DNA of 64,000 nucleotides from NCBI GenBank assembly GCA_020161575.1, contig JAIUNR010000008.1, positions 29,195 to 93,194 on the forward strand, given 5' to 3'. The notes beneath the pieces were generated by a model that did no database searches, was not told the origin of the DNA, and saw only the letters and a list, made by a program, of their open reading frames with translations. Position 1 is the stretch's first letter. Every line of letters starts with the position of its first letter. A program made the position numbers and the translations under genes. Origin of the DNA: Pseudomonadota bacterium (GTDB taxonomy: Bacteria > Pseudomonadota > Alphaproteobacteria > Rhizobiales > Beijerinckiaceae). Below are positions 17,153 through 64,000 of the stretch, in pieces.

Positions 17153-17181
17153 ATCCTGCTGATTTCCGCGCGAACCGGCTT

Positions 17182-17195: not shown

Positions 17196-17373
17196 TTTGC
17201 CCGAGTTATCCCCGCTCCCGATGGCCATGCTAGCCTGGGCTTGACTCGACTCAGCGGCTGAACCTTTCTTGTCACGCCAGTTTCCCGCGCAGCCCGGTTT
17301 TCGCGCGGTAACGGTTTGTGAGCGTTTCGTGCCCATTCTCCGTTATAAAGGGATTCCAACGCAAAGTGATTCG

Positions 17374-42961: not shown

Positions 42962-43100
42962 CGTCGGTCCTTGGCTGTGCCCGGGATCAGTGCCAGGCTC
43001 CCGAATGGCGCGCGGCGCCGGCCAGCCTTTCCACCGGAAGGTGGCGCCGCGTCGGCGCCCGCGCCATTACGACACATGGGCTAGTACGCGGGCAGGCACG

Positions 43101-46554: not shown

Positions 46555-46651
46555 CCCGTCAACTCAAGCACTAAAAGCGGCGCATGGCGCGCCGCTTTCA
46601 TAGGAAGGACGCCGCGGGGTGGCAGCGGTCCTTTCACGCTCGCCTCGTGGA

Positions 46652-46849
46652 TCAGAGGCTGATTCCGTTGCGGTAGTCCCAGCGGACAATCGAAGCGCCC
46701 TGCGAATTGGTGCAGCGGGTGACGGTCACATTCGGCTTCACGGTCACGGTGCAGGTCCAGGTCTGGCCGGCGCCGCCAGCCACCAGGTCCAGCGCGTTCA
46801 TATCCAGTTCCTGGATCGCGCCGTCGGCGAAAGAGGTGTTGTTGGTCAT
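46652..46849 (-). CDS. Double-glycine leader precursor peptide B (26-aa leader + 39-aa core, 2 Cys)
   Basis: ELDMNALDLVAGG|AGQTWTCTVTVKPNVTVTRCTNSQGASIVRWDYRNGISL; L(-12), L(-7), V(-4), GG; GGAG RBS; directly upstream of the HlyD/PCAT genes. Confidence 0.85.
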   Translation of the reverse strand: MTNNTSFADGAIQELDMNALDLVAGGAGQTWTCTVTVKPNVTVTRCTNSQGASIVRWDYRNGISL

Positions 46850-46992
46850 TTCGTTTTCTCCAGTTTTTGGGGGGCTGTGCAGGTCTCGCCGCCCGGCCCG
46901 GAGACAACGCCTCCTGCGATCGCGGCAAGTTCAGCCTCCGTCAGGAGGTAAACGCCCAGGCTCTCGGCCTTGTCGTTGGGATGATCGGTCAA
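46846..46992 (-). CDS. Double-glycine leader precursor peptide A (probable TTG start; 28-aa leader + 20-aa core)
   Basis: GGAG RBS 7 nt before TTG; LLTEAELAAIAGG|VVSGPGGETCTAPQKLEKTK; its stop overlaps the ATG of peptide B. Confidence 0.7.
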   Translation of the reverse strand: MTDHPNDKAESLGVYLLTEAELAAIAGGVVSGPGGETCTAPQKLEKTK

Positions 46993-47351
46993 TGCTCTTC
47001 TCCATTCCGGGCGCCGGTTCTCCGGCACCATGCGGCAACCAGCGAATCCGAAATGGCCCGCTGGAGCACACGATTCCCCGGTAGAGAAAAGCGTTCCCCG
47101 GAGGAACTAGTGCAAATCGACTAGTGCGCCGCCGGAGGAGGAAAGCTCCCTGAATTCAAAGGGGTTTACGAAGCAACTAAGTCATCTGTACTAGCCGAGG
47201 CGGGTAATGAACCAGCCACGACCTGCGATCGCTCACCTGTGCTAATCGATCCCGGGGGCAGAGTTTCTTATGAATCGGGACGGATCTGCCCTCCGTTGGT
47301 CATTTTTCTCGGAGGATTGGGTTCCTGAATAACAAGAATGGGAGAGAAAAA

Positions 47352-47579
47352 ATGAAACATTCCAACATCATCGCGCTGACCGAGAACGACCTTGATGCCG
47401 TCAGCGGCGGCACGCTGACCTTCGGCAATGGCACCACTGGAGGGTATGGCTCCAACGGCGCTTTCGCGCGCGGCTCCGCGAGCTGGACGAACAGCAGCGG
47501 CTCGTTCTCCACCAGCGTATCGTTCAACTTCGATGGTGGCAGCGGCTTCAACAAGGTCTCCTTTACCTGGAGGTTCTGA
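47352..47579 (+). CDS. Double-glycine leader precursor peptide C (20-aa leader + 55-aa Gly/Ser/Phe-rich core)
   Basis: MKHSNIIALTENDLDAVSGG|TLTFGNGTTGGYGSNGAFARGSASWTNSSGSFSTSVSFNFDGGSGFNKVSFTWRF; GGAGAG RBS; own terminator. Confidence 0.87.
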   Translation: MKHSNIIALTENDLDAVSGGTLTFGNGTTGGYGSNGAFARGSASWTNSSGSFSTSVSFNFDGGSGFNKVSFTWRF

Positions 47580-47623
47580 TTTTAGCAGGGCTTCCCGCCC
47601 CGCGATTCCTGCCTTTGCCTGCG

Positions 47624-47658
47624 AACCACGCATCCCATGCGATGCGTGGTTTTTTCTT
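47624..47658 (+). terminator. Intrinsic terminator of peptide C
   Basis: AACCACGCATC-CCATGC-GATGCGTGGTT, a perfect 11-bp stem followed by TTTTCTT. Confidence 0.82.
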
Positions 47659-47976: not shown

Positions 47977-49194
47977 ATGAATTTCCACACACAAAAAGAC
48001 CAGACAAACTCCAGGATCATCTCCAGCTTCGGCGATATCGAAGCCCTGCCGGACCGTGACATGCCGGTGGTGACGATGTTCAGCGGCGGGCTGGACAGCA
48101 CCTATCTCCTTCTGCGCCTCCAACAGGCAGGCTTCCGCAATGTCGAGGCTGTCGCGGTCAATATGGGCGAGCCGATCGACGCGGCCGCGATGAGCGGGAC
48201 CGCCGCGCGTTTCGGCGCGCGCTTCACCTATCTCGAAGCGCGCGATCTCTTCATCGAGAAGGCCGTCAAGCCCGCGATCCGCGCGCAGGCGAAGTATCAT
48301 GGCATGTATCCGCTCAGCAGTTCGCTGAGCCGCCCGGTGATCGCGGAAACCGTTGTCCGCCATGCCTCGGCGCTCGGCTCCACCCTGCTGCTGCATACCG
48401 CCAATCTCTCGCAGAACAGCCTGCCGCGCCTCAACAACAGCATTGTCCGCTTCGGCTTCAAGGGCGCTTTCGGCAGCCCCTACGTCTATTCCGCGCTCTC
48501 GCGCGAGCGCAAGGCGGAAGCTCTCGCCGGAGCCGGCCTGAGCTTCATCGCCGATCGCCGGCTGAGTGGTGACGAAAACCTCTGGTGCCGCGAATTCGAA
48601 TCCGGCCCGCTCGATGACCCCGAGGATTTCGTGATTCCCGAGGACAGTTTCCGCTGGACCCGCAAGGGCGAGCCTCCCGCGCCTGAAGAACTGGCGCTTC
48701 GCTTCGAAGATGGCGCGCTGGTCGCGGTCGATGGCAAGCCGGTCGCGCTCATCGACGCAATCGCCGCGCTCAACACGCGGGTCGGCAGGTTCGGTTTCGG
48801 TCGTTATGTCGGGCTCGAACATATCGCGAGCGGCGAGAAGGTGCTGGAGGTGCGCGAGGCGCCTGCCGCGATGATCATCATGGACGCCCTGCGCTTGCTC
48901 GAATGCGCCTCGCTGAGCGCCGAGGCGATCGCGCTCAAGCAGAAGCTGGAGCAGGATTGGGTGCAGGAAGCCATTGCCGGGCGTTGGGGCGGCAAGGTCC
49001 ATGCCATGTGCGAGGCCGCGATCGCCTCGGCCCTCGAAGGTGTGGGCGGCTCCGTCACCTATATGCTCGATGCGCAGCGCTTCATGCCTCGCGCCATCGT
49101 CGCCGATCGGCCGGTCTATATCCGCGACCGCGATCTATGGGAGTACCAGAAGGCGAAATCCGGCTGCGCGGGCGCCATGACCGGCGGTGCCTGA
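47977..49194 (+). CDS. Argininosuccinate-synthase-like (PP-loop) enzyme, divergent paralog
   Basis: [11 protein letters not shown]-loop; [53 protein letters not shown] are collinear with ArgG, but [13 protein letters not shown] replaces HGATGKGNDQVRF. Confidence 0.85.
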
Positions 49195-49232: not shown

Positions 49233-50609
49233 TCACGGGGCGCGCCAGCTTTCCGGCCCCGACCAATCCAGCAGACGCTCGAAGCGGCGGGCATGGGCGA
49301 GCAGGCGTGCCTCCTCGCCGCGCCGCCCGACAAGCTGGACGCCAACGGGCAGGGAGTCGAACATTCCAACCGGCACGACGGCGACAGGGTGCCCCGTGAG
49401 CGAGAACGGGGCCGTGAGCCCGATCGTCGCCAGCGCATAGGGCACGCGCCGCCCCTCGATATCGATCATGCGCGCCCGCCCCCATTTCGGCGTGTCGAGA
49501 TGCGGGTAGGCCGCCGTGGCCGAGACCGGCAGCACAAGCGTGTGATGGCTTTCCAGCAGGCGGTCGAGCGCCGCGCCCAGCGCCTCACGCTCTGCCAGCG
49601 CATCGGCGAGCAGCCGCGGCGAGCCCCAGAGACCACGCGCGATATCGCGCTGGATGGGCTTGGTGGCCGAACGGATCACGCCATAAGCCGCCATGGCCTT
49701 GCCGAGCCAGACGGGGATGGTCGCCGCGCCTTCGCTGCCGAGAATGCGCCCGTAAGCCCGCCAGGCGGCGCGGAAATCCCACGCCTCCGGCTGAATGGGG
49801 GCGATCGGCCAGCCCGCGCCTTCCAGCCGGGCGCGCAGATGGGCGAGCGCGGCTTTGGTGCGATGGCACAAGGGAAGACCGGGAAAATCCGTCCAGAGCG
49901 CGATGCGCAGATCCGCGCCTTCTTCCGGCAGGGGCGCGGCGCGCGGCGCGCCTTCGAGTGCCGCCAGCCCCGCGGCAAGGCAGGTAGTCGAGCGCCCGAT
50001 CAGGCCGATACTCTGGAAGCGCGAGAGCGGATGGCCGGAGCCGGGAAGCGGCGGGATATGTCCGTCGAGCGGGAAGCGTCCCGCCGTGCATTTGAGCGCG
50101 GGAACGCCGCAGAAATGTGCAGGAATGCGTGTGGAGCCCGCGAGATCGCTCGCGAGGTCGATGTCCGAGAATCCCAGCGCGACCGCCGCGCCCCCGCCCC
50201 CGCTGCTGCCGCCGCTGGTGCGGCTCTCGTCCCAGGGATTGCTGGTGACGCCGAAAATCGGGCTTCGGCATTGCACATCACCCGCGAGCGGCGATGTGTT
50301 GGTCTTGCCGATGAGGATGCCGCCCGCGGCCCGGATGCGCGCGACCGCGGCGGCATCCTTCTCCGGCACGTGATCCTTGAGCGGCGGATAGCTCGCGGTG
50401 GAGCGCAGGCCGGCGGTCTCGAACGTATCCTTCACGCTGACGATCAGGCCGGAGAGCGGGCCTGATGCCGGTGTTTCGGCCATGGCCAGGGCCTCGGCGC
50501 GGTTCTCCGTCACGATGGCGTTGCAGCGCGGGTTGAAACGGTCGATCCGTGCGAAGGCTGTTTCGAGACGCTGGCGGATGGCCGGTTCGGGAACGGGGAA
50601 ATCGGTCAT
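49233..50609 (-). CDS. Amidase-signature family enzyme
   Basis: GPLSGLIVSVKD (Lys), GKTNT, NPWD...GGSSGGGGAAVA (cis-Ser), SDLAGSTRIPAHFCG (nucleophilic Ser), PVGVQLVG. Confidence 0.92.
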   Translation of the reverse strand: MTDFPVPEPAIRQRLETAFARIDRFNPRCNAIVTENRAEALAMAETPASGPLSGLIVSVKDTFETAGLRSTASYPPLKDHVPEKDAAAVARIRAAGGILIGKTNTSPLAGDVQCRSPIFGVTSNPWDESRTSGGSSGGGGAAVALGFSDIDLASDLAGSTRIPAHFCGVPALKCTAGRFPLDGHIPPLPGSGHPLSRFQSIGLIGRSTTCLAAGLAALEGAPRAAPLPEEGADLRIALWTDFPGLPLCHRTKAALAHLRARLEGAGWPIAPIQPEAWDFRAAWRAYGRILGSEGAATIPVWLGKAMAAYGVIRSATKPIQRDIARGLWGSPRLLADALAEREALGAALDRLLESHHTLVLPVSATAAYPHLDTPKWGRARMIDIEGRRVPYALATIGLTAPFSLTGHPVAVVPVGMFDSLPVGVQLVGRRGEEARLLAHARRFERLLDWSGPESWRAP

Positions 50610-50621
50610 GCTGCCTCCGTT

Positions 50622-51362
50622 TCAGGCTGGTCGGAGAAGGTCGCGCAGACGCGCGGCCACCGCCTCGGGCTGCGTATCGAGGAAGAAATGGTCGCCCTCG
50701 AACCAGTGGATCCCGCCGGGTCGCTCCGTCTCGGCGAGCCAGGGCGCGACCCGATCGGGCGGGACGATCGGATCGTTTGTGCCGGCAAAAACGTCTATCG
50801 GCTGGTCGAGCCGGATGCCCGCCCGGTAGGCATAGGTTTCCACGATGGCGAAATCGGCGCGGATCGCCGGCAGCACCAGCGCCATCAGCTCGGCATGGGC
50901 GAGAATGGCGGCGGGCGTGCCGTTATAGCGCCGGAGCTCCTCGATCAGCTCGGCATCCGGCAGGGTATGGAGCTGTTCGCGTGCCTGCCGGACGCTCGGC
51001 GCCTGACAGCCCGAGACGATGAGCCTTTCCGGCACCCTCAGGTGCATGAGCTTGCTAAAGCGCGCGAGTTCGAACGCCACCAGTGCGCCGAGGCTATGGC
51101 CGAAAAACGCGGCGGGCAGATCGCCCTCCCCCGCGATGACTTCCGCAAGCTGGCGCACGAGCGGGGCGAGGCGATCGATCGCCGGCTCGCCCATGCGCGT
51201 GCCGCGGCCGGGCAGCTGGATCGCGCAGACCTCGATTTCAGGCCCGAGCATCGGCTGCCAGTTGAGATAGGCGGCCGCGTTGCCGCCGGCATAGGGGAAA
51301 CAGAAAAGGCGCAGCCGCGCCTTGGCCGTGGGACGGCGCAGGAGCCAGTTGCCCGTTCTCAT
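50622..51362 (-). CDS. Type II (editing) thioesterase
   Basis: RLFCFPYAGG, IQLPGRGTR, FFGHSLGA, LPAIRADF, FEGDHFF. Confidence 0.94.
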   Translation of the reverse strand: MRTGNWLLRRPTAKARLRLFCFPYAGGNAAAYLNWQPMLGPEIEVCAIQLPGRGTRMGEPAIDRLAPLVRQLAEVIAGEGDLPAAFFGHSLGALVAFELARFSKLMHLRVPERLIVSGCQAPSVRQAREQLHTLPDAELIEELRRYNGTPAAILAHAELMALVLPAIRADFAIVETYAYRAGIRLDQPIDVFAGTNDPIVPPDRVAPWLAETERPGGIHWFEGDHFFLDTQPEAVAARLRDLLRPA

Positions 51363-52981
51363 GCCGGGCCGCTCCCGCAGGCGAGCTTTCCATCCACGAG
51401 TTTGACGATGCGGTCCGCCATGGCGAAATAGGCTTCGTCATGCGTGATCGCGATCACGGTCTTGCCGCGTGCCTTGAGTTCGGGAAGCAAGGTCTCGTAG
51501 AAGACGCGGCGGAAGGCGGGGTCCTGATCCGCCGCCCATTCGTCGAAGAGATAGATATCGCGATCCTCGAGATAGGCGGAAACCAGCGCGAGGCGCTTGC
51601 GCTGGCCCGTGGAAAGATCGAGCGTGGAGAAGGCGCCGTCGCGGATCGTGACCTTGTGATCCATTTTCAGCGCGGCGAGATAGCCGGCCGCGCGCGCCGC
51701 CGTGGCATCGTCTCCGGCATCCATGACCTGCTCGAACAGGTGGAAATCCGAGAAGACGGCCGAGAAATGCTGGCGATAGGCGTCGCGGTTGGCCTCCGTC
51801 ACCTCGACGCCACGAAAGCGGATCGTGCCCGCCTCGGGCGTGAAAAGGCCGAGCAGGATCATCGCGAAGGTGGATTTGCCGCTGCCATTGCCGCCCACGA
51901 GGAACAGCGTCTCGCCCGGCGCGATCTCGAGATCGAGCGGGCCGAGCACGAAGCCCGGCTCGTCGCCCCCGCCGGAATAGCGGTGCCGGATGCCGGAAAA
52001 AGCAAGGATCGGCGCTCCGCTGGCCGGGAATAGCGCTTTGGCCGGTACCTCGGGCTCGATGCGCGCGAGATCGCCGCTGATCTGCTCGATGCGTCCGAGC
52101 GCGATCCCCGCCTGCCTTACGACGGGGAGAATGATGATCAGCTCCGTCACCGGGCGGATGAGGTAGAGCAGGATCAGCGTCACGGCGACGATTTCGCTGC
52201 TGGGGATCGCGAGCAGGCGCGGCAGGCCGAAGACAAAGGCGCCGATCACGACATAGAACAGGATATTCGCCGTGTTTGTCACCCGGATATAGGTGCGCAT
52301 GCTCGCGACGAAATCGGTTTTCACGCCCTCCGTCACGGGGGCGATGACCTTTTCGAGAAAGCGCTCCGAACGCGCGCGGTTGAGCTGAAGCTCGCGGCTG
52401 CCTTCGATCAGTGCGCGGAAATGGGTGTAGAGCGTGTCGATCTGCTGGCGGACGGCGGCGAGGCGCGAGAGCGGCCGGCGCTCCGCCAGCCGGAACAGCG
52501 TGACCCCGGCGACGAGGATCGCGATGAAGACCAGGAACAGCTTCGGCGAAAGGCCGAGAAGATAGGCGAAACACGCGATCAGGATGACAAGATTGCCGAT
52601 CATGATCGGCATGAACTGGAAGGCTGTCGTGAACGAATCCACGTCGCGCGTCAGGATGTTGAGGAGCGGCTGCCTGCCGAGCACCTGAAGCTTCGCCTGC
52701 GGGGTCGCGAGGATACGCCGGCTCAGCGTCATCCTCAGATGCGCGATCGAGAGCTGGTTGAGCTCAAGAAGCCGCGTTTCCGAATAGATCTTCGCCACGA
52801 GATGGATAAGACAGCAGGCGAAGAACAGCAGACCAAGCAACGCCTCGGGTTTTTCCGCCGCCAGCGCCCGGCTGATGAGAACCGCGATTCCCGCTGCCGA
52901 AAGGCCGCTGACCAGCCCCGCCAGCGTCGCCACCAGCACGCGCAGCCGGAACTGGCGGAAGAGATAGAGGAACAGGTTCAT
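51359..52981 (-). CDS. Cyclic-peptide export ABC transporter (SyrD/PvdE/YojI family)
   Basis: TM domain plus GGNGSGKST, FSAVFSDFHLF, LSTGQRKRLAL, FDEWAADQDP. Confidence 0.93.
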   Translation of the reverse strand: MNLFLYLFRQFRLRVLVATLAGLVSGLSAAGIAVLISRALAAEKPEALLGLLFFACCLIHLVAKIYSETRLLELNQLSIAHLRMTLSRRILATPQAKLQVLGRQPLLNILTRDVDSFTTAFQFMPIMIGNLVILIACFAYLLGLSPKLFLVFIAILVAGVTLFRLAERRPLSRLAAVRQQIDTLYTHFRALIEGSRELQLNRARSERFLEKVIAPVTEGVKTDFVASMRTYIRVTNTANILFYVVIGAFVFGLPRLLAIPSSEIVAVTLILLYLIRPVTELIIILPVVRQAGIALGRIEQISGDLARIEPEVPAKALFPASGAPILAFSGIRHRYSGGGDEPGFVLGPLDLEIAPGETLFLVGGNGSGKSTFAMILLGLFTPEAGTIRFRGVEVTEANRDAYRQHFSAVFSDFHLFEQVMDAGDDATAARAAGYLAALKMDHKVTIRDGAFSTLDLSTGQRKRLALVSAYLEDRDIYLFDEWAADQDPAFRRVFYETLLPELKARGKTVIAITHDEAYFAMADRIVKLVDGKLACGSGPA

Positions 52982-52999: not shown

Positions 53000-54310
53000 T
53001 CAGGCCATCTGCCCCGCCGCGCCGCGCGCGACGAGATAGGGATAGGCGGGCGTCGTCAGCAGCACGCGCAGGCGGTTGAGGGCGGGATCGCCCGGATCGC
53101 GCCCGTAACCGCCCGCGCCCGAGGCGAGGATATCGGCCATGCGCGTCCGTCCGTCGCAGGCGGCGAAGACTTCCCTCACGCGCGGATCTGCCGGCTGCGG
53201 CGGCATGGGCAGGCGGGTCGGGCGGCTCGCCTCCTGATAGCGCGATTGCGGGTTGAGCACGAAATTCGTGGAGCTGCCTTGCGCGGGCATGAAGACCGTA
53301 TCCAGGAACTGCGCCACGATCTCGCGCTGCGTCTTGCGCGGATGGCGTGAATCCCGCCGCTGCACATAGAACCAGAGCATCGGCGATTTCTCGACCAGCA
53401 GCAGGTTGCTTACCTGCCAGCGATCGAGATCACCCAGCGTTTCGTAGCGTGCCCGCGCTGCGCCTTGCGGCAGGTCGATTTCCCACTCGATCTGCCCGGA
53501 AAGCTTGTCGAACTGGTTGATGCAGGGCTGGAGCAGTTGCAGCCCGGCGCCATGGCAAAGATCGCGCAGGGTCTCGACCGTGTAGCTGAATTCCACGGGC
53601 TGGAGCAGCGAATCCGCGACGGCCGCCTCGGGCAGGTCGCGTTGATGCACGAGGAAGTCGCGCATCGAGTTCTGCACTTCGAATCCCGCGACCAGCTCCA
53701 TGGTGATGGGCAGTTCGACATCCACCGCCGGCTTGCCATCCTGCCCGCCGAGGAGGCGGATCGCCTTCTGATACGCGGTGGTATGGGTGCGATGATAGTA
53801 ATTATAGACCATCAATTCGAGGATGCCGTCCGGTTTCAGCCCGCGCGCGAGGGCGTTGAGCGGCACCGCCGGATCGGCGTTGTGATGGATGACGCCGGTG
53901 CAGATGACGTGATCGAAGCGCGCCTCGTGGCGCACTTCGTTGAGGCTCGCCTCCTCAAGCGTCAGGTTGGTGATGCCGAGCTGGGCGGCGATATCGCTGC
54001 ACACTTCGAGCGAACGCGTCGAGACATCGGTGCCGAGCACGCGCGCCTGGGGGTATTTCAGCGCGGTCAGCACCGCCTGGTTGGTGCCGCAGCCGGCGAC
54101 CCAGATCTCGCATTCGGGCGCCAGCCGCGCATGGGTGAAATCGCCGATCTCCTGATTGACGAAAGCCGGCCAGAAGGCGCCATCGCCCGCCTTCGGCAGC
54201 AGCAGCGGCAGCCATGGATAGTTGAACCGGCTGTAGAAATCACGGTTGAGGGCATCGACATCGCGCGCCGAGGTCGCCGCGCCGATGTTGAAGGAAACGG
54301 AATCACGCAT
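53000..54310 (-). CDS. Class I SAM-dependent methyltransferase with extended C-terminus
   Basis: IWVAGCGTNQA motif I variant, GTDVS, FDHVICTGVIHH, LKPDGILELMVY; its start overlaps the NRPS-PKS stop. Confidence 0.85.
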   Translation of the reverse strand: MRDSVSFNIGAATSARDVDALNRDFYSRFNYPWLPLLLPKAGDGAFWPAFVNQEIGDFTHARLAPECEIWVAGCGTNQAVLTALKYPQARVLGTDVSTRSLEVCSDIAAQLGITNLTLEEASLNEVRHEARFDHVICTGVIHHNADPAVPLNALARGLKPDGILELMVYNYYHRTHTTAYQKAIRLLGGQDGKPAVDVELPITMELVAGFEVQNSMRDFLVHQRDLPEAAVADSLLQPVEFSYTVETLRDLCHGAGLQLLQPCINQFDKLSGQIEWEIDLPQGAARARYETLGDLDRWQVSNLLLVEKSPMLWFYVQRRDSRHPRKTQREIVAQFLDTVFMPAQGSSTNFVLNPQSRYQEASRPTRLPMPPQPADPRVREVFAACDGRTRMADILASGAGGYGRDPGDPALNRLRVLLTTPAYPYLVARGAAGQMA

Positions 54311-57300
54311 GGGTGGCTTGCCTGCTGTCGTGGTTTGTCCGGTTGAGCGCCTCGGCGATGCGGGCGGCATGGACCGGTTCGAGGATGGAATAATGATCCG
54401 CCCGCAAGGTCGCGGCGTGGAAGGCGCCGGCCGCGACCTGACGCCATGTCCTCACCATCTCCTCGCGGATCGCGGCGGGGCGTTCGCGCCCGTCCGGCTC
54501 CTGCCCGGCCACGAAGAGCACGCTCTGCGCGACAAGGCGCTGGCGCGGCCGATAGCCCACGAGACTCCGGGAATTGCGCGCGCAGAGCGCGAGGATCTTG
54601 CGGATATAGGGGTGCGCGCCCGGATCCGGCCCTTCCGCGAGTTTCGGATCGAGCCTGCGACGCAGCTGCATTTCCGCGAGGAAGCTTTGCTTGAGCGCTT
54701 CGTCATCCTCGCGCAGCCGGTCGTCGAAGACGGGCGGATCGATCAGCACCAGCCGCGCGACGGTCGGCGATTCGCCGGTCAGAAGCCGGGCGATCTCATA
54801 GGCGATGGCGGCGCCGTAGGACCACCCCGCGAGGCGGATGTTCCCGGTGCGGGCGATATCGCGGATCCCCGCGAGATAGGCGCGCGCCGCCGCTTCGATC
54901 GTCCGGGGCGCGGCTGCGCCGCTCTCCAGATCCGGGTCCTCGATGCCATAGACCGCGCTGGCGGGATCGATCGCGCGCACGAGATCACGGTAGCATAGTA
55001 GATCCCCGCCCACGGGGTGGATGAGGAAGACGGGTTCTCCGCCGGCCCCCGCGCGTAGCAGGCGCACGCAATGGCCCGACGCGGCGCTTTCCTTCGATGC
55101 CCCGCCCGCCGCCGCCTCAAGCAGGTCGGCGAGCGAGAAATCCACCGGCAGCGCCGGCAGGGCGAGCCGGAGATCGAGGGCGGTATTGAGCGCATCGACA
55201 AGATCGAGCGCGGCGAGGGAATCGCCGCCAAGATCGTAGAAGGAGATGTCGCGCGCCGGGTCCGCCGTTCCGGTGAAGCGGGCGTAGATTTCGGCGATCA
55301 CGGCCTCGGGCGCACGTCCTTGCGAGGCGGACGCAGCCTCCGTGATATGGCGCTCCGACAGGAGCTTGCCGATTTCCTCGGGTGGCAGCGGCGAGACGAC
55401 GAGACGCGGCAGGCCGAGCGTGAGCGCGGTCTCGAGGATTTCCCAGCCTTCCTCCGTCGAGATCGCGTTGAGATCGGCGCGCGTGGCGAGATCGGCGAGT
55501 GCATTGCGCTGGCCGCCCAGCGCGGCGGACATGCCGATGCCCCGCCAGGCGGGCCAGTTGATGCTGATGACATCCGGCCCGCCCTCGCCCTTCGCCAGCG
55601 CGAGCGCGTCGAGGAAGGCATTCGCGGCGCTATAGCCATATTGTCCCGCGACCGGAATCAACGCCGAGAGCGAGGAGCACAGAATGATCGCGTCCTTGGT
55701 CAGCGGCGCGAGATGACGCATCAGCAGCCGCGCGCCCGTCACCTTCGCCGCCAGCGCCGCCTGGAGCATCGCCGGATTCTTGAGCGCGATCAGCCCGCCG
55801 CCGGCATCGCCCGCGGCATGGATGATGCCCGCGAGGGAGCCGAATTCCGCGCGGATCCGTTCGGCCAAGGCCGCTACGGCGGCCGGATCGGCGATGTCGC
55901 CGTCGATGCGGATGACGCGCGGATCGAGATCAGCCATACCCGCCCGGCGGGAAAAGGCGATGACCCGCCGCCCCGGCGCCTCAAGCAGACGGGTGATGAT
56001 CGCGCGGCCGATTCCGCCTCCGCCGCCGGTGACGAGATAGACGCCATCCGGTCGCAGCCGCGAGGGCAGCGTCGCGGGAATTTCCACCCGCTGGAGCCCA
56101 TGCTGCCAGATATGGCCGGCACGCAGGGCGAGTGGGCCTTCCGCCTCGAAGCCCTCTCTGCCTGCGAGGCAGGCCAGCATGGCGTCGTCCGGCGCTTCGG
56201 GCAGATCAATCAGGCGGAGACGGATCCGGGGATATTCGACGCGGATCGCGCGCATCGGCGCCGCGAGCATCTCCGCCCAGGCGCCCTCGCCCCGTTCGAA
56301 GGCGCCGTGCGTGAGCAATGTGAGATCAAGCGAACGCTTGCCGAAGGCCATCTCCCAGCCCTGAACCAGCACCATCAGCGTGGTGAAAAGCGCTTCGGCC
56401 CCTTCGCCATCCGGCTCGGGCAAGGGCAGGGTCTGCACGAGATGCATGTCTCCTTCGGCCGGGCAGTGGCGGCGCAAGAGATCCCCAACGGCTTGGGGAT
56501 TGGCCGGTGGCGCGTCCGGGAGGCGGAATGTCCTGATACCGGGCGCGCGCAGGGCCGCCTCGATCGGGGCGATGGCGCCGTTCTCGCCGCCGCGCGGAAT
56601 GCGCCGCAGGCGCGCCCAACCCGGCTGATGGAACCACGCGGCGCGTTCCTGCCGTGCGATGGCGGGCTTTCCGGCGCCTTGTCCGGCCTCGAGCCTGAAT
56701 GGCGCGAGATCGAACGGATATTCCGGCATGTCCCAGGGAATCGGGGCATGGGGCGCTTTCGGCAGCAGATGGGCCGATCCCCCCTGAAGCCAGAAGGCGG
56801 CGATCTGCATCGGCGTACCGCCCGGCGGCTGCGCGCCTGCTTCCGCCGGGGCGCAGGCGGTGGGGGCCAGCCCCTGAAGCAGGGCGATGGCCTCGTCGGC
56901 GCTGGAAACGACAAGCGCGCCGCGCCAGGAATCATCCGAGGCATTGCGCAGGCACCAGGCGGCGACGCCCGCGAGATGATGCGGATTGTCCTCGAGATAG
57001 CCGGCAAGATGCTGTGCGAGCGCGCGGAGCGCGCTTTCGCTGCGCGCGCCGAGCAGCAGGCAATGATGCGCGTGGCGGATGGTGGCTGGCGCCGCCGGAG
57101 GGGCCTGCCCGAGAATGACATGGGCATTGGTACCGCCCATGCCGAAGCTGCTCACGCCGGCATAGGGGCGCGTGCGCGGCCATTCGAGGGCGCGGGTCGC
57201 GACCTTGAACGGCGTCGCGGCGAAGTCGATGCCCGGATTGGGCGCGTCATAGCCGAGGCTGGGCGGAATCACGCCGTGATAGCGCGCCAAAGCCGCGCGG

Positions 57301-60300
57301 ATCAGCCCGGCGAGCCCCGCAGCGCTGCCCAGATGCCCGATCTGGCTCTTGAGCGCGCTGATCGCGCAGCTTCCGGGTTCGGTATGGGGGGCGAAAGCCT
57401 GCGTGAGCGCGGCGATCTCGATGGGATCGCCGAGGGCGGTCGCGGTGCCGTGGGTCTCGACATAGCCGATCTCGGCCGGCGAGATCGCGGCCCTCTCCAT
57501 CGCCGCCGCGACGACCGCCGCCTGTCCGGCGACGGCGGGAGCGGTGAACGCTACCTTGGCGCGCCCGTCATTGTTGATGGCGCTGCCCTTGATGACGGCG
57601 AGAACGCGGTCCGAATCCGCCAGGGCGGCGGCGAGCGGTTTGAGCACGACCAGCGCGTAGCCATTGGCGGGAACGGTGCCGCCGGCCTTGTCCGAGAAGG
57701 GCCGGCAATGCCCGTCCTTCGAGAAGATATGGCCGGGCTGGTAGGCATAGCCTTCGAGCACGTCGGCGTTGATGGTCGCGCCGCCGACCACGCACAGATC
57801 CGCCTCGCCCGCGCGCAGTTGCGCCAGGGCGAGATGAACCCCCACGAGCGAGCTTGAACAGCCGGTCTGGACCGTGAAGGCCGGGCCGCGCAGATCGAGC
57901 AGATGGGCGATGCGCGTAGCGAGAAAGTCCTTCTCGTGCATCAGCGAGAGGTTGAACGGCGTCGTGCCCGGCGGACGGGCATAGCCACCGTCGAGCAGGT
58001 GATGGTGGTGGCTGTTCTCGCTGCTCGAAAGGATCAATCCCACGCGCGCATGGCTGCGGTCTCGCCAGTAGCCCGCATTTTGCAGCGCATGGACCGTTCC
58101 CATCAGCAAATGGCGCTGCTGCGGGTCCATCACCAGCGCGTCGGCGGCGCTGATCCCGAAATAGCTGGGGTCGAAATCGAAGACGCCTTCAAGGCTCGCG
58201 CTTGCCTTGACCCAGCCCTCACGATCGGCGTCGCCGACCGTGATCCCTGGCTCGCCCCTGCGCGTCCTATCCCAGAATTCGGCGGGTGAGTTGGCGCCCG
58301 GAAACCGCAAGGTCATGCCGACAAGCGCGACATCGCCCTCGGCGTTGCCGGCGGCGCCGGCCTCGCGCGCTGCCGGCAGCGCAACCGGGGCCTGCCCCGC
58401 GATGAAGGCGGCGAGATCGTCCAGCGTGGGATGCGCGAAGAAGTCGACAAGGTTGAGCCCTTCGAAACGCTGCTTCAGCCCGGCATGGATCTTCATCAGC
58501 GCGAGCGAACCGGCGCCGGCCTCGAAAAAATGCTGATCGTTCTCGATGGGATAGCCGAGAACCGCCTCGAAGGCGCGGCCGAGTTCGGCGGCGATCGCCT
58601 CGGCCTGCGTTTCCGCCGCCGGGACGGCGGCAGGGCGGACCGGCGAGAGGTCCGGCGTGTCGTCGAGACGTCGGCGCAGGGCGGCACGATCGACCTTGCC
58701 GTTCTCGTTGAGCGGCAGCGTATCAAGAACGCGGATGCGGCGCGGGACCATGAAATCAGGCAGGCGCGCGGCGAGATGCGCCCGCAGCATCGCTTCGAGC
58801 GCGCTCGCCTCCCCGGAGGCGGCGGGGAGCACGAATCCCGCCAGCGCCTGGCCGCCGCCCGCCTCCTCGCTCACCAGCACCGCCGCGCCGTGCACGCCTT
58901 CATGCGCCGCGAGCGCGGCTTCGACCTCGCCCAGCTCGATGCGATAGCCGTTGACTTTGACCTGATCGTCGAAGCGGCCGAGGAAAACCAATTCGCCATC
59001 CGCCCGGCGCATCACCTTGTCGCCCGTACGGTAGAGCCTTCCGGCGCCTCCCGCGAAGGGATCGGCGACGAAACGCGCGGCGGTAAGGTTCGGCCGGGCG
59101 AGATAGCCGTCGGCCAGCCCCGCGCCGCCGATATACAATTCGCCGGCTTCGTCCGTCGCGCAGGGTTCCATCTCCTCGTCGAGGATGTGGAGGGTAGTGT
59201 TGCGGATGGGGCGGCCGATCGGCACCGCCTCTTCCGGCGCAATCGCATCCGCCGCCGTGAAGAAGAAGGTCGAACAGCCGACCGTGGTTTCCGTCGGCCC
59301 GTATTCGTTGACGAAGGTGGCTTCCGGCAGCAGCGCGGCCCAGCGCGCCGCGAGCGCGCCAGCCCATTGCTCGCCGCCCACGACCAGCACATGCGGTGTC
59401 TGGCTTGGCGCGCGGCTTTCGGCATAGGCGATGGCGCTGGCGAGATGCGCGGGAGTGAGCTTGAAAAGGCGCGGTTCCGCCTCGAAAAGGGCGGCGACGA
59501 TCGCCTCGATATCGTTGCCGTCCGGGCTGGGAAGATCCACCCGCCTGCCGGTGATGAGCGGCGCGACAAGGCTCGTGACCGTCGCGTCGAAATTGAGCGA
59601 GGTCGTCACCAATGCGGCGCGGATCGCGGGGAGGAAATAGGCGTCGCGCGCGTGGCACAGGTAATTGACCACCGCGCGATGGGGCAGCACCGTGCCTTTG
59701 GGCTGCCCGGTGGAACCGGATGTATAGATGACATAGGCCTCCCCCTTCGCTTTCATGGCATGCGGGAAGGGGCTGGCGGGCGCAGCGGCGAGGTCGGCCT
59801 CGGTTTCCGGCGTATCGATCAGCAATACCGGGCAAGGTGGCCGGGAGAGCGCGCCGCTCAGGCCAACACGCGAGACGATGAGCCGGAGCCCGGAATCGCG
59901 GATCATGAAATCGAGCCGTGCGGCGGGATAGGCGGGGTCGAGCGGGACATAGGCCGCGCCGGCTTTGAGGATCGCCAAAAGCGTGATGACCATTTCCGGC
60001 GAGCGGTCGAGCGCGATGCCGATGCGACCGCCCGGCCCGCCGGCGCGGGCCGCGATGAGATGGGCAAGCCTGTCGGAGGCTTCATCGAGCGCGCGATAGC
60101 TCAGGAGGCGGTCTCCGGCCTGCAGCGCGGGCGCGTCCGGCGTCCGGCGCGCCTGTTCGCGGAACAGGGTTTCGATGCGCGCATCCTCGGGAAAGGGCAT
60201 GGCGGTCGCGTTGCGCTCCCGCATCACCGCCTCGCGCGCCTCGGCGAGGCAGGTGGCGAGCGTTTGGGCGAGCGGCGCCTCTGGCGTGCTTGAGGCCCGC

Positions 60301-63300
60301 GCGATCAGGTCGGCATAGGCGCGCGCGAGACAGGCGATTGTTTCAGCGCTGAAAAGCGAGCTGTCATATTCCACGAGGCCGGCGAGACGCGCGCCTTCGG
60401 CATGGAGGAAGAAGGTCAGCGGGAATTTGGCGTCGCAGCGCGTCACCCAGCGGAAACGGGTGTCGAGCCCTTCAAGGTGCAAACGGGTGTGATCGGTGTT
60501 CTCGAGCACGAACATCGCCTCGAAAAGCGGGCCCGTGACGCCCGCCTGCCGCTGGTCGTCGGAGATGTGATCATAGCCGACGAGGTGGTTTGCGCGCAGC
60601 GTTTGCGCGCTCTCTTCCGCCTTCTCCATCCATTGCGCGAGGCTCATGCCGGGGGAAGGCGCGTAACGCGCGACGAGCGTATTGACGAACATGCCCGCCG
60701 CCCGGTCGAAATCGCGATGCGGCCGGGTTCCGAAGGGCACGCCGAGGGCGATCCCGGGCTTGCCGGCGTGATGCGCGAGCAGCGCCGCGAAAAGCCCCGA
60801 GAGCAGCGAGAACGGCGAAATCGACCGCGCCGCGCAGGTGCGCTCGAAAGCCGAGGCAACCGCAGGAGGAAGATCGAAGGCGTGATAGCGCCCGCTCATG
60901 GCATGTGGGAGATAGGCCGTGCCCGCCCCGCGCGGAAGGTCGGCGAGGCTTTCGCGCCAGAAAGCGCGTTGGCGGATGTAATCGGGTGTCCCGGTCAATG
61001 CGCGCTGCCACTCGGCATAGGCGCCGTAGCCGTGCGCCGGCAGGGATTCGGGGAGGCTCGCGCCTGATTTCAGCGCGGCGTAATCTCGGCTGATCTCCTC
61101 GAGCAGGATATTGAGCGACCAGCCATCGACCGCGATATGATGGAGGCACAGCAGCAGGGTGACCTTGCCCGCGGCGCCCGCGACAAGGGCGCCGCGCATC
61201 AGTGGCGCCTCGGCGAGATCGAAGGGCCGGGCGAAGAAATCCTGCTCGAAGCGCTGCCGCGCGACGGGAGCGAGATCGCGGCGCAGATCGAGCCCCAGCG
61301 GGGCGGCGGGCATTTCCTCCGCCCAAACCGTACCTTCCGCCTCGCGATAGCGCGTGCGCAGCGCGCCGTGGCGTTTCACGAGCGCCTTAAGGGCACCCTC
61401 CAGCGCCGGGATATCCGGCATGGCATCAAGATCGAAGACGAGCGGGATCGAATAGGCGGTCGAGCCGGGCTGCATGGCCTGCGCAAGCCACAGGCGGCGC
61501 TGTTCGCCCGAGACTTCGTAACGCGTGGGCGAAACCGCCGGCAAGGCGGGGAGCGCCTGCGCCTCCCCCCCTTCCTTTTGCGCCTTGAGGCTGGCGGCGA
61601 GATCGGAAAGGCTGGCCGCCTCGATCACCGCCTTGAGCGGGACCGCGATCCCGAGCCGCGCCGAAAGCGTGTTGGCGAGCTGGCTCGCTTTCAGCGAATC
61701 GCCGCCGAGCGCGATGAACCCCGCCGAGGGGTCGAGCGCGGCGCGACCGAGGATCGTGGCGCAATCCGCAAGGATCGCGCCGGTGAAAGCGTTGAGCGCT
61801 GCCGGGCTCGCCTGCCCTTCCCCGCCTGGTAGCTCCATGCCGGAACCCGCGAGCGCGGCGCGATCCACCTTGCCATTGGCGTTGATCGGCAGGGAATCGA
61901 GCTGAAGGAAACGATGCGGAATCATCGCCGCCGGCAGGGTTTCGGCCAGATGCGCGCGCAGGGCCGCCTGCGTCGTTGCCGCCTTGAGGACGAGATAGGC
62001 GCAAAGATCGCCCGCCACCAGCGCGAGCGCCGCGTGACGGATGGCGGGATGCGCGAGCAGCGCCTGCTCGATCTCGCCGAGTTCGATGCGAAAGCCGCGC
62101 AGCTTGATCTGGTCGTCGATGCGCCCGGCATGATGGAGATTGCCGGTCTCGTCGAACCATCCGAGATCGCCGGTGCGGTAATAGAGCCGCGCGGTGCCGT
62201 CCGCTTCCCGAAGCGTGACGAATTTCTCCGCGGTAAGGTCGGGCCGGCCGATATAGCCGCCGACAACCCCGCTGCCGCCGATGAGGATCTCGCCGGTGCC
62301 GTTTTCGCCTTCGCCGAGCCGGATGGGCGTATCACGCAGAGGGCGGCCGATCGGCAGCGATGGAACGCCCGCCTGCGCACGCAGCGCCGCCTGGTCAATT
62401 TCGTGGAAGGTCGCGAAGGTCGTCGCTTCCGTGGGGCCATATATGTTGACGAGGCGGCACCTCGCTTCGGGATGCGCGGCAAGGAAGGCGCGCACCAGGG
62501 CGCCGTTCGCGCTCTCGCCGCCGAACAGCACCTCGCGCATGGCGAGGATGATGTCGGGCCGCTCGACAAGGAGGAGGTTGAACAGACCTGTCGTGATGAA
62601 GGCGACATCGACCGGCGTTTCCGCCAGACTTTCGGCGAGACGCGGCAGATCGAGCATTTCTTCCTGCGGGATCGAGACAAGCGCGGCGCCGTTGAGCAGC
62701 GCGCCCCAGATCTCGAAGCTCAGAGCATCGAAGGCCGGATTCGAGAAATGGGCGACGCGGTCGCCGGGCGAGATCGTCACGTAATCGGGCCGCAAAGCCA
62801 TGCGGATCAACCCGGCCTGCCCCACGCGCATGCCCTTGGGCGTGCCTGTCGTGCCCGAGGTATGGAAGATGCAGGCGGGTCTTGCGGCATCGACCGGCGG
62901 CAGCACGCCGCTATCGGGAACGAGCGCCGCGAATTCGGCGGGCGCCAGCACGCGGCAGGGCGCAAGTGGCGCCTTCCGCGCCGAGATGAGAAGCGTGGCC
63001 TCGCAGATCGCGAGGATATCCGCGAGGCGCTTTTCGGGCATCCGCGTGCCGAGCGGCAGGAAGATTCCGCCTGCCTTGAGCACGCCGAGCACGAGGGTCA
63101 GTAGCGCCCAGGAGCGCTCGCGTTCGAGCGCCACGACATCGCCGGGGCGGATGCCCGCCGCGATCAGCCGGCGGGCGCAAAGCTCGGATTCGCGCGCCAG
63201 ATCGGCATAGGTGAAGCGCGCCGCCCCTTCGATGAAGGCGATGCGTCCGGGCGCCGCCGCGACCTGCGCGGCGAAGAGGCCGAGCAGCGATTGCTGGTTC

Positions 63301-63308
63301 CGGGTCAT
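54303..63308 (-). CDS. Hybrid NRPS-PKS megasynthase, A-T-C-A-T-KS-KR-T-TE (about 3001 aa, no AT domain)
   Basis: A1 (HTSGTTGTPKG, YGPTE, YRTGD), T1 (LGGDSL), C (HHIAVDG), A2 (YTSGSTGQPKG, YRTGD), T2 (AGAGSL), KS (QTGCSSSL, ETHGTAT, KSQIGH), KR (VTGGGGGIG, YSAAN), ACP (LGGDSL), TE (GWSYG, ADHY). Start MTRNQ at 63308 overlaps the upstream stop. Confidence 0.95.
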   Translation of the reverse strand: MTRNQQSLLGLFAAQVAAAPGRIAFIEGAARFTYADLARESELCARRLIAAGIRPGDVVALERERSWALLTLVLGVLKAGGIFLPLGTRMPEKRLADILAICEATLLISARKAPLAPCRVLAPAEFAALVPDSGVLPPVDAARPACIFHTSGTTGTPKGMRVGQAGLIRMALRPDYVTISPGDRVAHFSNPAFDALSFEIWGALLNGAALVSIPQEEMLDLPRLAESLAETPVDVAFITTGLFNLLLVERPDIILAMREVLFGGESANGALVRAFLAAHPEARCRLVNIYGPTEATTFATFHEIDQAALRAQAGVPSLPIGRPLRDTPIRLGEGENGTGEILIGGSGVVGGYIGRPDLTAEKFVTLREADGTARLYYRTGDLGWFDETGNLHHAGRIDDQIKLRGFRIELGEIEQALLAHPAIRHAALALVAGDLCAYLVLKAATTQAALRAHLAETLPAAMIPHRFLQLDSLPINANGKVDRAALAGSGMELPGGEGQASPAALNAFTGAILADCATILGRAALDPSAGFIALGGDSLKASQLANTLSARLGIAVPLKAVIEAASLSDLAASLKAQKEGGEAQALPALPAVSPTRYEVSGEQRRLWLAQAMQPGSTAYSIPLVFDLDAMPDIPALEGALKALVKRHGALRTRYREAEGTVWAEEMPAAPLGLDLRRDLAPVARQRFEQDFFARPFDLAEAPLMRGALVAGAAGKVTLLLCLHHIAVDGWSLNILLEEISRDYAALKSGASLPESLPAHGYGAYAEWQRALTGTPDYIRQRAFWRESLADLPRGAGTAYLPHAMSGRYHAFDLPPAVASAFERTCAARSISPFSLLSGLFAALLAHHAGKPGIALGVPFGTRPHRDFDRAAGMFVNTLVARYAPSPGMSLAQWMEKAEESAQTLRANHLVGYDHISDDQRQAGVTGPLFEAMFVLENTDHTRLHLEGLDTRFRWVTRCDAKFPLTFFLHAEGARLAGLVEYDSSLFSAETIACLARAYADLIARASSTPEAPLAQTLATCLAEAREAVMRERNATAMPFPEDARIETLFREQARRTPDAPALQAGDRLLSYRALDEASDRLAHLIAARAGGPGGRIGIALDRSPEMVITLLAILKAGAAYVPLDPAYPAARLDFMIRDSGLRLIVSRVGLSGALSRPPCPVLLIDTPETEADLAAAPASPFPHAMKAKGEAYVIYTSGSTGQPKGTVLPHRAVVNYLCHARDAYFLPAIRAALVTTSLNFDATVTSLVAPLITGRRVDLPSPDGNDIEAIVAALFEAEPRLFKLTPAHLASAIAYAESRAPSQTPHVLVVGGEQWAGALAARWAALLPEATFVNEYGPTETTVGCSTFFFTAADAIAPEEAVPIGRPIRNTTLHILDEEMEPCATDEAGELYIGGAGLADGYLARPNLTAARFVADPFAGGAGRLYRTGDKVMRRADGELVFLGRFDDQVKVNGYRIELGEVEAALAAHEGVHGAAVLVSEEAGGGQALAGFVLPAASGEASALEAMLRAHLAARLPDFMVPRRIRVLDTLPLNENGKVDRAALRRRLDDTPDLSPVRPAAVPAAETQAEAIAAELGRAFEAVLGYPIENDQHFFEAGAGSLALMKIHAGLKQRFEGLNLVDFFAHPTLDDLAAFIAGQAPVALPAAREAGAAGNAEGDVALVGMTLRFPGANSPAEFWDRTRRGEPGITVGDADREGWVKASASLEGVFDFDPSYFGISAADALVMDPQQRHLLMGTVHALQNAGYWRDRSHARVGLILSSSENSHHHHLLDGGYARPPGTTPFNLSLMHEKDFLATRIAHLLDLRGPAFTVQTGCSSSLVGVHLALAQLRAGEADLCVVGGATINADVLEGYAYQPGHIFSKDGHCRPFSDKAGGTVPANGYALVVLKPLAAALADSDRVLAVIKGSAINNDGRAKVAFTAPAVAGQAAVVAAAMERAAISPAEIGYVETHGTATALGDPIEIAALTQAFAPHTEPGSCAISALKSQIGHLGSAAGLAGLIRAALARYHGVIPPSLGYDAPNPGIDFAATPFKVATRALEWPRTRPYAGVSSFGMGGTNAHVILGQAPPAAPATIRHAHHCLLLGARSESALRALAQHLAGYLEDNPHHLAGVAAWCLRNASDDSWRGALVVSSADEAIALLQGLAPTACAPAEAGAQPPGGTPMQIAAFWLQGGSAHLLPKAPHAPIPWDMPEYPFDLAPFRLEAGQGAGKPAIARQERAAWFHQPGWARLRRIPRGGENGAIAPIEAALRAPGIRTFRLPDAPPANPQAVGDLLRRHCPAEGDMHLVQTLPLPEPDGEGAEALFTTLMVLVQGWEMAFGKRSLDLTLLTHGAFERGEGAWAEMLAAPMRAIRVEYPRIRLRLIDLPEAPDDAMLACLAGREGFEAEGPLALRAGHIWQHGLQRVEIPATLPSRLRPDGVYLVTGGGGGIGRAIITRLLEAPGRRVIAFSRRAGMADLDPRVIRIDGDIADPAAVAALAERIRAEFGSLAGIIHAAGDAGGGLIALKNPAMLQAALAAKVTGARLLMRHLAPLTKDAIILCSSLSALIPVAGQYGYSAANAFLDALALAKGEGGPDVISINWPAWRGIGMSAALGGQRNALADLATRADLNAISTEEGWEILETALTLGLPRLVVSPLPPEEIGKLLSERHITEAASASQGRAPEAVIAEIYARFTGTADPARDISFYDLGGDSLAALDLVDALNTALDLRLALPALPVDFSLADLLEAAAGGASKESAASGHCVRLLRAGAGGEPVFLIHPVGGDLLCYRDLVRAIDPASAVYGIEDPDLESGAAAPRTIEAAARAYLAGIRDIARTGNIRLAGWSYGAAIAYEIARLLTGESPTVARLVLIDPPVFDDRLREDDEALKQSFLAEMQLRRRLDPKLAEGPDPGAHPYIRKILALCARNSRSLVGYRPRQRLVAQSVLFVAGQEPDGRERPAAIREEMVRTWRQVAAGAFHAATLRADHYSILEPVHAARIAEALNRTNHDSRQATHA

Positions 63309-64000
63309 GCGCTTCTCCCGCGGGTGAGGATCGGGCTCGGCGCGTTGAGCACCTGTTCGATGATGGCGCCGACACGCCGGACATCCGCGCCTTCGAGGAT
63401 GGTCGCGTGGTCGCCTTCGGTGCATTTCACCCACATGCCGCCCTGGGCGCGCTGGCGCCAGAAATGCCGGAGGTAATGCAGCTGATACTTGTTGCGGCCC
63501 TTCATCGCCTGCACGAGCACGAAAGGCGCCGGGCTCGGCTGGCAATCATAGGTGCGCGTGCACAGCGTGTTGTGGTTGTAGAGGCGGTGATATTGCTCGA
63601 TCTGGGCATTGTCGATGCCCGGATACATGCCGTTGTACTTCACCAGTTTCTCGCGGAATTCCTCCAGATTGGTGGTGGATTTGTCGTTGCGGATGGCGGG
63701 ATCGTCCATGCCCATGCTGTCGAGCAGCACCGCGACGGAGTTGCGGTTCCCCGCCATGTGCAGCCGCCGCGACATCTCATAGGAGACGAAGCCGCCGAAG
63801 GAGGCGCCGGTGAAGACGCAGGGGCGGTCGAGCAGCGGCTCGACCAGCTTGAGATAGTAATCCGCCATGGCGCCGACATCGGGCAGGAACTCCTCGCCCG
63901 GCAGCACGCCGACCGATTGCACCCCGTAGACCCCGAATGCCTCCGGCAGCTCCTTCGCCAGCGAGAGATAGCAGAAGGCCGTGCCGCCCGCCGGATGGAT
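63305..64000 (-). CDS. Type I thioesterase domain, C-terminal part of a gene starting beyond the right edge (probably another NRPS/PKS)
   Basis: The frame is open to the window edge: IHPAGGTAFCY...FTGASFGG (G-x-S-x-G)...LLDS...EGDHATIL. Confidence 0.85.
   Translation of the reverse strand: MHPAGGTAFCYLSLAKELPEAFGVYGVQSVGVLPGEEFLPDVGAMADYYLKLVEPLLDRPCVFTGASFGGFVSYEMSRRLHMAGNRNSVAVLLDSMGMDDPAIRNDKSTTNLEEFREKLVKYNGMYPGIDNAQIEQYHRLYNHNTLCTRTYDCQPSPAPFVLVQAMKGRNKYQLHYLRHFWRQRAQGGMWVKCTEGDHATILEGADVRRVGAIIEQVLNAPSPILTRGRSA

Follow-up and report, generated by a model that had tools for sequence, protein, structure and literature searches.

We analyzed a 64,000-nucleotide stretch (the window) of the Beijerinckiaceae assembly GCA_020161575.1, namely positions 29,195 to 93,194 of contig JAIUNR010000008.1 (C8:29195-93194); the genome amounts to 3.19 Mb in 17 contigs. 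The subject of this analysis is a minus-strand gene that encodes a hybrid of a nonribosomal peptide synthetase (NRPS) and a polyketide synthase (PKS), referred to here as the focal gene. Its reading frame runs from an ATG at 63308 to a TGA at 54305-54303. The longest frame opens at a TTG codon at 63545; the ATG, which is preceded by a GGAGA Shine-Dalgarno sequence, was taken as the true start. This ATG overlaps the TGA of the upstream gene on the same strand (ATGA), and the last 231 codons of that gene, which lie within the window, encode a thioesterase (TE) domain. The focal gene is thus the fourth of an NRPS operon of ~45 kb whose genes are translationally coupled, and another TE lies directly upstream. 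The features of the locus are collected in Table 1.

Table 1. Coordinates of the focal gene, its domains, and the adjoining genes of the operon (positions in the window; A, adenylation; T, carrier; C, condensation; KS, ketosynthase; KR, ketoreductase; AT, acyltransferase; ACP, acyl carrier protein; aa, amino acids; SAM, S-adenosylmethionine)
Feature	Position	Strand	Remarks
Upstream gene, 3' end, TE domain (GASFG)	63305..64000	-	1366-aa TubC_N-C-A-T-TE gene; reaches C8:96600, past the window
Hybrid NRPS-PKS gene, 3001 aa	54303..63308	-	A(Val/Ile, predicted)-T-C-A(Asn, predicted)-T-KS-[AT-less linker]-KR-T-TE; signature trimodule of PipC/PppD/MbpD/RmoI type
A1 adenylation domain	61809..63251	-	Code DAFFLGITFK, predicts Val/Ile
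T1 carrier domain	61593..61775	-	GGDSL, Ser538
Condensation domain	60258..61523	-	HHIAVDG
A2 adenylation domain	58686..60164	-	Code DATKVGEVGK (Asn predicted)
T2 carrier domain	58419..58616	-	AGAGSL, Ser1601; feeds KS
Ketosynthase	57249..58334	-	Cys-His-His triad intact; in D-type KS clade
KS-to-KR linker, ~400 aa, without acyltransferase	56049..57242	-	Holds KAsynt_C_assoc
Ketoreductase	55542..56045	-	TGGGGGIG loop, Tyr2559
T3 (ACP)	55119..55316	-	Ser2697
C-terminal thioesterase	54342..55034	-	GWSYG; Asp2857; His2972; D-type TE clade
Class I SAM methyltransferase, about 436 aa	53000..54310	-	ATG 54310 overlaps the hybrid stop (ATGCGTGA)
Cyclic-peptide export ABC transporter, SyrD type	51359..52981	-	TIGR01194, 434 bits
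Type II thioesterase	50622..51362	-	
Amidase-signature enzyme	49233..50609	-	Last gene of operon; in 4/6 Asn-type clusters

Pfam analysis of the focal protein returned AMP-binding, PP-binding, Condensation, AMP-binding, PP-binding, ketoacyl-synt (N- and C-terminal parts), KAsynt_C_assoc, KR, PP-binding, and Thioesterase; the E-values lay between 1e-130 and 1e-24. Together with the complete set of catalytic motifs, this bears out the order A-T-C-A-T-KS-KR-T-TE proposed in a preliminary description of the DNA. No acyltransferase (Acyl_transf_1, PF00698) was matched in the protein, the ~400-residue interval between KS and KR included; this linker is the counterpart of the AT-docking region in the enzymes of the detoxin/rimosamide-like (DRL) family (PMC12828459). 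All catalytic motifs were invariant in an alignment with seven full-length homologs: HHxxxDG of the C domain (H723-G729), the KS triad C1817/H1953/H1992, the glycine-rich loop and Y2559 of the KR, S2830/D2857/H2972 of the TE, and the carrier serines S538, S1601, and S2697. When the translation was read by eye, both the LDD motif and the diagnostic Trp were absent from the KR. Because neither a C domain nor a docking domain precedes A1, A1-T1 was assigned as the loading module.

An AT-less hybrid of this kind, PipC, is the signature of all DRL clusters, and AT is absent from all PipC homologs (PMC12828459). The PipC ACP is malonylated by FabD of E. coli and of P. entomophila, and the DRL hybrid builds Ile/Val-Pro-C2(β-OH), which PipC-TE releases by hydrolysis; the TE of the upstream PipB forms the ester, since its Ser-to-Ala mutant loses all full-length product (PMC12828459). 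Val/Ile, Pro, and malonate are the units loaded by RmoI and PppD, and pseudovibriamide B contains an ester between its heptapeptide carboxylate and the ketide carbinol (bioRxiv 10.1101/2020.12.15.422899). MbpD of the pseudobulbiferamide (mbp) cluster is the counterpart of PppD in the pseudovibriamide cluster (PMC10616845). The products of the family are depsipeptides with anti-blasticidin S ("anti-antibiotic") activity (PMC12828459; PMC12911931). The AT-less architecture and a preceding C-A-T-TE gene, both present at our locus, make up this published signature, so that the gene set is not the uncharacterized one it had been taken for.

Consistent with this, a tblastn search of plasmids yielded collinear matches at 33-36% identity on plasmids of Streptomyces, Serratia, and Microbulbifer sp. 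MKSA007. The focal protein aligned end to end with the Serratia protein (33%) and at 34-36% with MbpD and the Streptomyces protein, and by Pfam the order A-T-C-A-T-KS-KR-T-TE without AT was found in MbpD, the Streptomyces detoxin-type gene, and the Serratia plasmid gene as well. A C-A-T-TE gene lay directly upstream of the hybrid in each homologous case examined. A protein search with the KS-to-T3 part alone returned giant multi-KS polyketide synthases as its best 150 matches. Among the 80 related loci collected by sequence patterns, most were unrelated NRPSs, as the back-translated patterns (VNEYGPTE and others) are generic NRPS motifs; apparent full-length matches in Dyella, Thermomonas, Herpetosiphonaceae, Gemmatimonadota, and Pannonibacter had other architectures and were set aside.

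A maximum-likelihood tree was built from the KS domains of 12 enzymes of this kind (D-type), 8 KS domains of seven cis-AT NRPS-PKS hybrids, and the genome's other PKS. The D-type domains formed a single clade with support of 100/100, apart from the KSs of the cis-AT hybrids. Within it, the focal KS and those of Rhodobacterales formed an Asn-type subclade (94/93), sister to the subclade of the characterized enzymes, which is Pro-type and comprises Serratia, MbpD, S. rimosus, and Streptomyces (95/93). The TE of the upstream gene was 47-54% identical to the TEs of the C-A-T-TE genes of S. rimosus (54%), Streptomyces, and Microbulbifer and grouped with them in the TE tree (support 99), as against 24-27% identity to generic NRPS TEs; the terminal TEs of all D-type proteins formed a separate clade (99). 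Clade membership thus points to an upstream TE of the ester-forming type, and the TE trees extend the homology beyond mere domain order to the whole two-gene cassette. On these grounds we consider the focal gene, with a probability of about 0.7, to encode the trimodular NRPS-PKS that is the signature of a DRL depsipeptide pathway with two thioesterases, and to belong to an uncharacterized branch that we call Asn-type.

The name refers to the second substrate. Stachelhaus codes were re-derived in two ways: the A domains were aligned to that of GrsA, and the FDxS and YGPTE motifs served as anchors. The GrsA A-domain reference gave back its own code (DAWTIAAICK). Alignment and anchoring reproduced exactly the codes given earlier, DAFFLGITFK for A1 and DATKVGEVGK for A2; one automatic alignment was off by one residue at position 278 or 331, and motif anchoring favored the earlier codes. 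The A1 code is shared with MbpD and nearly identical to that of P. entomophila PipC (DAFFLGVTFK). In a survey of 29 D-type proteins, DAFF[LV]GxTFK was found in all 28 that are full-length, P0309 being a fragment without A1. The A2 code was Asn-type in 14 proteins, from the focal plasmid, Gemmobacter, Frigidibacter, Oceaniglobus, Kiloniella, and several unnamed sequences, and Pro-type in Pseudomonas (including P. entomophila PipC), Streptomyces, Microbulbifer, and Serratia. Two further proteins, P0301 (3253 aa, DITQIGIVYK) and P0358 (3011 aa, DITALGLVYK), carried a third type, DIT[QA][IL]G[IL]VYK; this matches neither the Pro nor the Asn type, so that at least three substrate classes exist within the signature enzyme family.

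Comparison with the characterized systems separated what is shared from what is not. PipC of the P. entomophila pseudotetraivprolide cluster has the same AT-less A-T-C-A-T-KS-KR-T-TE order, a Val/Ile A1, and a preceding NRPS gene that ends in a TE, and is ~30% identical to the focal protein over the KS-to-TE part (P0298/P0303). However, its A2 is Pro-specific, where Asn is predicted for the focal one; PipE, PipDFG, and PipH have no focal counterpart; and its upstream peptide is a thiazole tetrapeptide, whereas the focal upstream line has about nine FAAL-primed modules. MbpD is plasmid-borne like the focal gene (Microbulbifer plasmid CP128431.1), with a C-A-T-TE gene of 1372 aa followed by an AT-less hybrid of 2992 aa; identity is 34% and 27% over two segments, the MbpD A2 is Pro-type, and the focal methyltransferase has no counterpart in the MbpD locus. 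PppD (pseudovibriamide B, Pseudovibrio) adds Val/Ile/Leu, Pro, and one acetate unit. The PppD/MbpD upstream lines make a ureido/thiazole heptapeptide and are accompanied by the accessory genes pppG-K, unlike the focal cluster. The RmoI/detoxin-type clusters of Streptomyces (rimosamides, detoxins, miramides) include the S. rimosus upstream TE that is 54% identical to ours, but they carry a Pro code and, by the hybrid, a TauD dioxygenase and GSCFA/hypothetical genes, none of which the focal cluster has. Their upstream lines are short (one or two modules), and known members of the family range from one to seven, against about nine here. The TEs of FrsA (FR900359) and salinamide, which transfer a chain onto a hydroxyl of another line, have been cited as analogues (PMC12828459); the likeness is functional only. 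A characterized match of the same architecture therefore exists, but not a close one, given 33-36% identity, another second substrate, and other accessory genes. The observation in the preliminary description was thus confirmed, while its interpretation stood in part: the system appears to be an Asn-type variant of a known pathway type and not a wholly unrecognized one.

The gene upstream of the focal gene is in turn overlapped by a further one (...A-T-C-A-T), of which at least 1620 aa are encoded before the contig ends. A tblastn search with the complete Gemmobacter denitrificans genes showed that the line continues from C8:7990 to 1 (FAAL-T-C-A-T-C-A..., 53% identity), with further parts on C17 and C15, both small contigs of high GC content. 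G. denitrificans has the complete line, in which FAAL-T-(C-A-T)x4 is encoded by gene 1 (4862 aa), (C-A-T)x4 including a single N-methyltransferase insert by gene 2 (4631 aa), and C-A-T-TE by gene 3; the hybrid follows. The upstream line is therefore FAAL-primed, has about nine NRPS modules, and is closed by the C-A-T-TE gene, and the "compact" system described earlier proved to be the fourth gene of a long coupled operon with a second TE adjoining. Because parts of the line map to both contig ends and to C17 and C15, C8 behaves as a circular replicon; it is probably a circular plasmid of ~114 kb whose assembly is broken inside the NRPS repeats. Outside the window, the pieces of the operon occupy C8:1-7990, C17, C15, and C8:96599-101458, and two of the NRPS fragments open with the identical peptide ILKAGGAYLPLD. 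No ortholog of the focal gene was found in 22 genomes of the same genus, which suggests that the cluster was probably acquired with the plasmid. When the window DNA was compared with plasmids by megablast, only phn genes matched (~75% identity, plasmids of Rhizobiales and Paracoccus).

Gemmobacter species, Oceaniglobus roseus, and Frigidibacter encode collinear full-length homologs of the focal protein (42-46% identity), and Kiloniella laminariae encodes a less similar one; with the focal plasmid, these make up the Asn-type/methyltransferase branch. The core order NRPS - C-A-T-TE - hybrid - methyltransferase is common to Oceaniglobus, two Gemmobacter species, Frigidibacter, and Kiloniella. Behind the core, these five foreign clusters carry a phosphopantetheinyl transferase (PPTase; 5/5), an ABC or MFS exporter (5/5), a type II TE (4/5), and an amidase (3/5, absent from G. 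denitrificans and Kiloniella). The 425-aa methyltransferase follows the hybrid directly in six of six Asn-type clusters, ours included, and is confined to them. It had been counted as part of the system, as had the SyrD-type exporter, and both assignments hold: the methyltransferase is translationally coupled and syntenic in all six, and the exporter matches TIGR01194 and is syntenic in four Rhodobacterales clusters, an MFS gene standing in its place in Kiloniella. The only substantial solved relative of the methyltransferase is M. tuberculosis Rv2067c (8HKR, E 3e-25), and because Rv2067c is a lysine N-methyltransferase, the similarity weakly suggests N-methylation, perhaps on the free Val/Ile amine.

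By analogy with the characterized enzymes, we infer the following route. A1 would put Val or Ile on T1 and A2 would put Asn on T2, and the C domain would join them to Val/Ile-Asn-S-T2. Housekeeping FabD would deliver malonate to T3 in trans; the only acyltransferases in the genome are FabD (C6) and that of one cis-AT PKS (C11), and this set is consistent with such a role. The KS would add two carbons to the dipeptide and the KR would reduce the β-keto group, giving Val/Ile-Asn-psi[CH(OH)CH2]CO-S-T3. The upstream chain, made by FAAL-T and about nine C-A-T modules, one of them N-methylating, would then be esterified onto this β-hydroxyl by the TE of the C-A-T-TE gene, and the hybrid's own TE would free the product by hydrolysis. 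The methyltransferase may tailor the product, possibly by N-methylation, while the type II TE would proofread and the ABC pump would export.

Aminoacyl extension with malonyl and ketoreduction to a gamma-amino-beta-hydroxy acid is the route to isostatine in didemnin and statine in pepstatin, where the modules lie within a single line. To our knowledge, no characterized product contains a statine-type unit derived from Asn. The statine-like unit from Val/Ile, Asn, and one KR-reduced malonate that had been proposed for this enzyme is supported in so far as characterized homologs perform the same chemistry with Pro; it is a predicted building block, analogous to "ivprolide", that may be released free but is probably not the end product itself. 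We see an even chance that the Asn-type/methyltransferase branch makes a new class of lipodepsipeptides, in which a fatty-acylated, partly N-methylated nonapeptide would be esterified to an Asn-derived gamma-amino-beta-hydroxy acid, with the methyltransferase (in some strains also the amidase) replacing the hydroxylation and acetylation tailoring seen in classical detoxin-like compounds, and with an activity that could differ from the blasticidin-antidote effect known for the Pro-type members.

Several observations weigh against placing the focal gene in a DRL pathway. Its identity to the characterized enzymes is only 33-36%. The A2 code, DATKVGEVGK, departs from DVQ[FY][IV]AHVVK of the characterized DRL members and is not Pro-type, and the substrates Val/Ile and Asn are code-based predictions. 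An Fe/alpha-ketoglutarate dioxygenase (PipE/PppK/RmoL) is reported in all DRL clusters; no match to PF02668 was found in the whole genome, nor did the Streptomyces TauD give a tblastn match. Likewise, the genome contains no match to PF08885 (GSCFA) of the PipDFG trio, and the corresponding Streptomyces proteins were without tblastn match; pipDFG is missing also from the pip clusters of P. viridiflava and P. syringae (PMC12828459). No PPTase was found in the focal cluster, whereas all five foreign Asn-type clusters have one. The operon is split over contig ends, and its integrity in the source strain is presumed from the tblastn collinearity with G. denitrificans. Furthermore, the trees have few outgroups (in the KS tree, 8 hybrid KSs and one unrelated PKS), and no product of any Asn-type cluster is described in the searchable literature.

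The focal gene might instead encode a self-contained small synthetase, with a free, possibly methylated Val/Ile-Asn-derived 4-amino-3-hydroxy acid as end product and an unrelated upstream line. It does have its own loading A-T and its own TE, and in the DRL family the free trimodule product, ivprolide, is released hydrolytically and can be detected upon expression of the hybrid gene by itself (PMC12828459). We regard this as unlikely in view of the overlap between the focal start codon and the stop of the TE-bearing gene, the retention of the two-gene cassette in every homologous cluster examined, and the place of the upstream TE in the ester-forming clade at 47-54% identity. The mode of release was also considered. 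TE domains of NRPS-PKS lines often cyclize, the Val/Ile amine is predicted to be free as no C domain precedes A1, and the focal TE sits on a long branch inside the D-type TE clade; the C-terminal TE could thus yield an N-acyl-hydroxypyrrolidinone, or a macrolactone or macrolactam closed through the free Val/Ile amine or through a residue within the upstream peptide. Known pyrrolinone/tetramate NRPS-PKS termini, however, retain the β-keto group (no KR) and release by Dieckmann or amide-N cyclization. A Dieckmann-type or reductive release domain is absent here and the KR is intact, so a terminus of that type was rejected. Since the characterized PipC-TE hydrolyzes (PMC12828459), cyclizing release as a whole is quite improbable, and the pyrrolidinone or lactam suggested before found no support, the family precedent being hydrolysis after esterification of the β-hydroxyl.

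A role for the amidase in joining the chains was weighed in the same way. It matches ClbL over the full length (E 1e-40), and in Frigidibacter sp. SD6-1 an amidase and an MbtH-like protein are fused (528 aa, L108 21938-23524), which ties the amidase physically to the NRPS machinery; an amide bond could then connect two TE-released fragments, as ClbL does in colibactin assembly. Urethanases and other amidase-signature enzymes match about equally well or better, the G. denitrificans and Kiloniella clusters lack the amidase, and a TE of ester-forming type is always present, which makes amidase coupling extremely unlikely. Esterification by the upstream TE, as in the DRL pathway, is the reading that we retain. 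The N-acyl-D-Asn prodrug logic of colibactin and amicoumacin was discarded, as the Asn would be internal and preceded by a Val/Ile loading module that is free, and no peptidase of ClbP type was found. Nothing was found in support of a siderophore role, although no search was aimed at receptor or hydroxamate/catechol genes.

DRL compounds form a widespread family whose activities, "anti-antibiotic" and motility-modulating, are unusual, and their biosynthesis, with FabD as trans-AT and an ester-forming TE, has been worked out only recently. The present analysis indicates that the signature enzyme has a sister branch, in which Asn is predicted in place of Pro and a dedicated methyltransferase and a long lipopeptide line occur without the dioxygenase and PipDFG. 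This branch is a defined, testable target for genome mining and could reveal how an ester-forming TE handles a different acceptor; the general principles are left unchanged.

An ArgG-like gene (argininosuccinate-synthase-related; NF038212, 538 bits) at 47977-49194 (+) forms a single-gene unit that is convergent with the amidase gene and lies downstream of a strong terminator (47623-47652). It adjoins a double-glycine peptide/PCAT region. Since none of the foreign homologous clusters examined (five) carries this gene, a connection with the NRPS operon is improbable; it lies on the opposite strand in its own unit, and the tailoring step once attributed to it has no support. The genes at 41819-47658 beside the operon, which include a C39-peptidase ABC transporter (43101-45266), an HlyD adaptor (45253-46554), a DUF418 protein, and small peptide genes, were treated as a separate bacteriocin-type system.

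Outside the window, the only MbtH gene of the genome lies at C8:8437-8646 (+), divergent from and upstream of NRPS gene 1. After it, at C8:8949-13604 (+), come genes for a solute-binding protein, a HAMP histidine kinase, and a sigma-54-dependent response regulator; these products may regulate the operon. The 16S rRNA primer sites 27F, 515F, 806R, and 1492R (up to 2 mismatches) were found in no contig, indicating that the rRNA operons are missing from the assembly. The cis-AT type I PKS on C11 (~12000-19500, minus strand; 2481 aa) is unrelated to the plasmid cluster, and frames of ~2460-2500 aa corresponding to it are present in 16 of the 22 genomes of the same genus.

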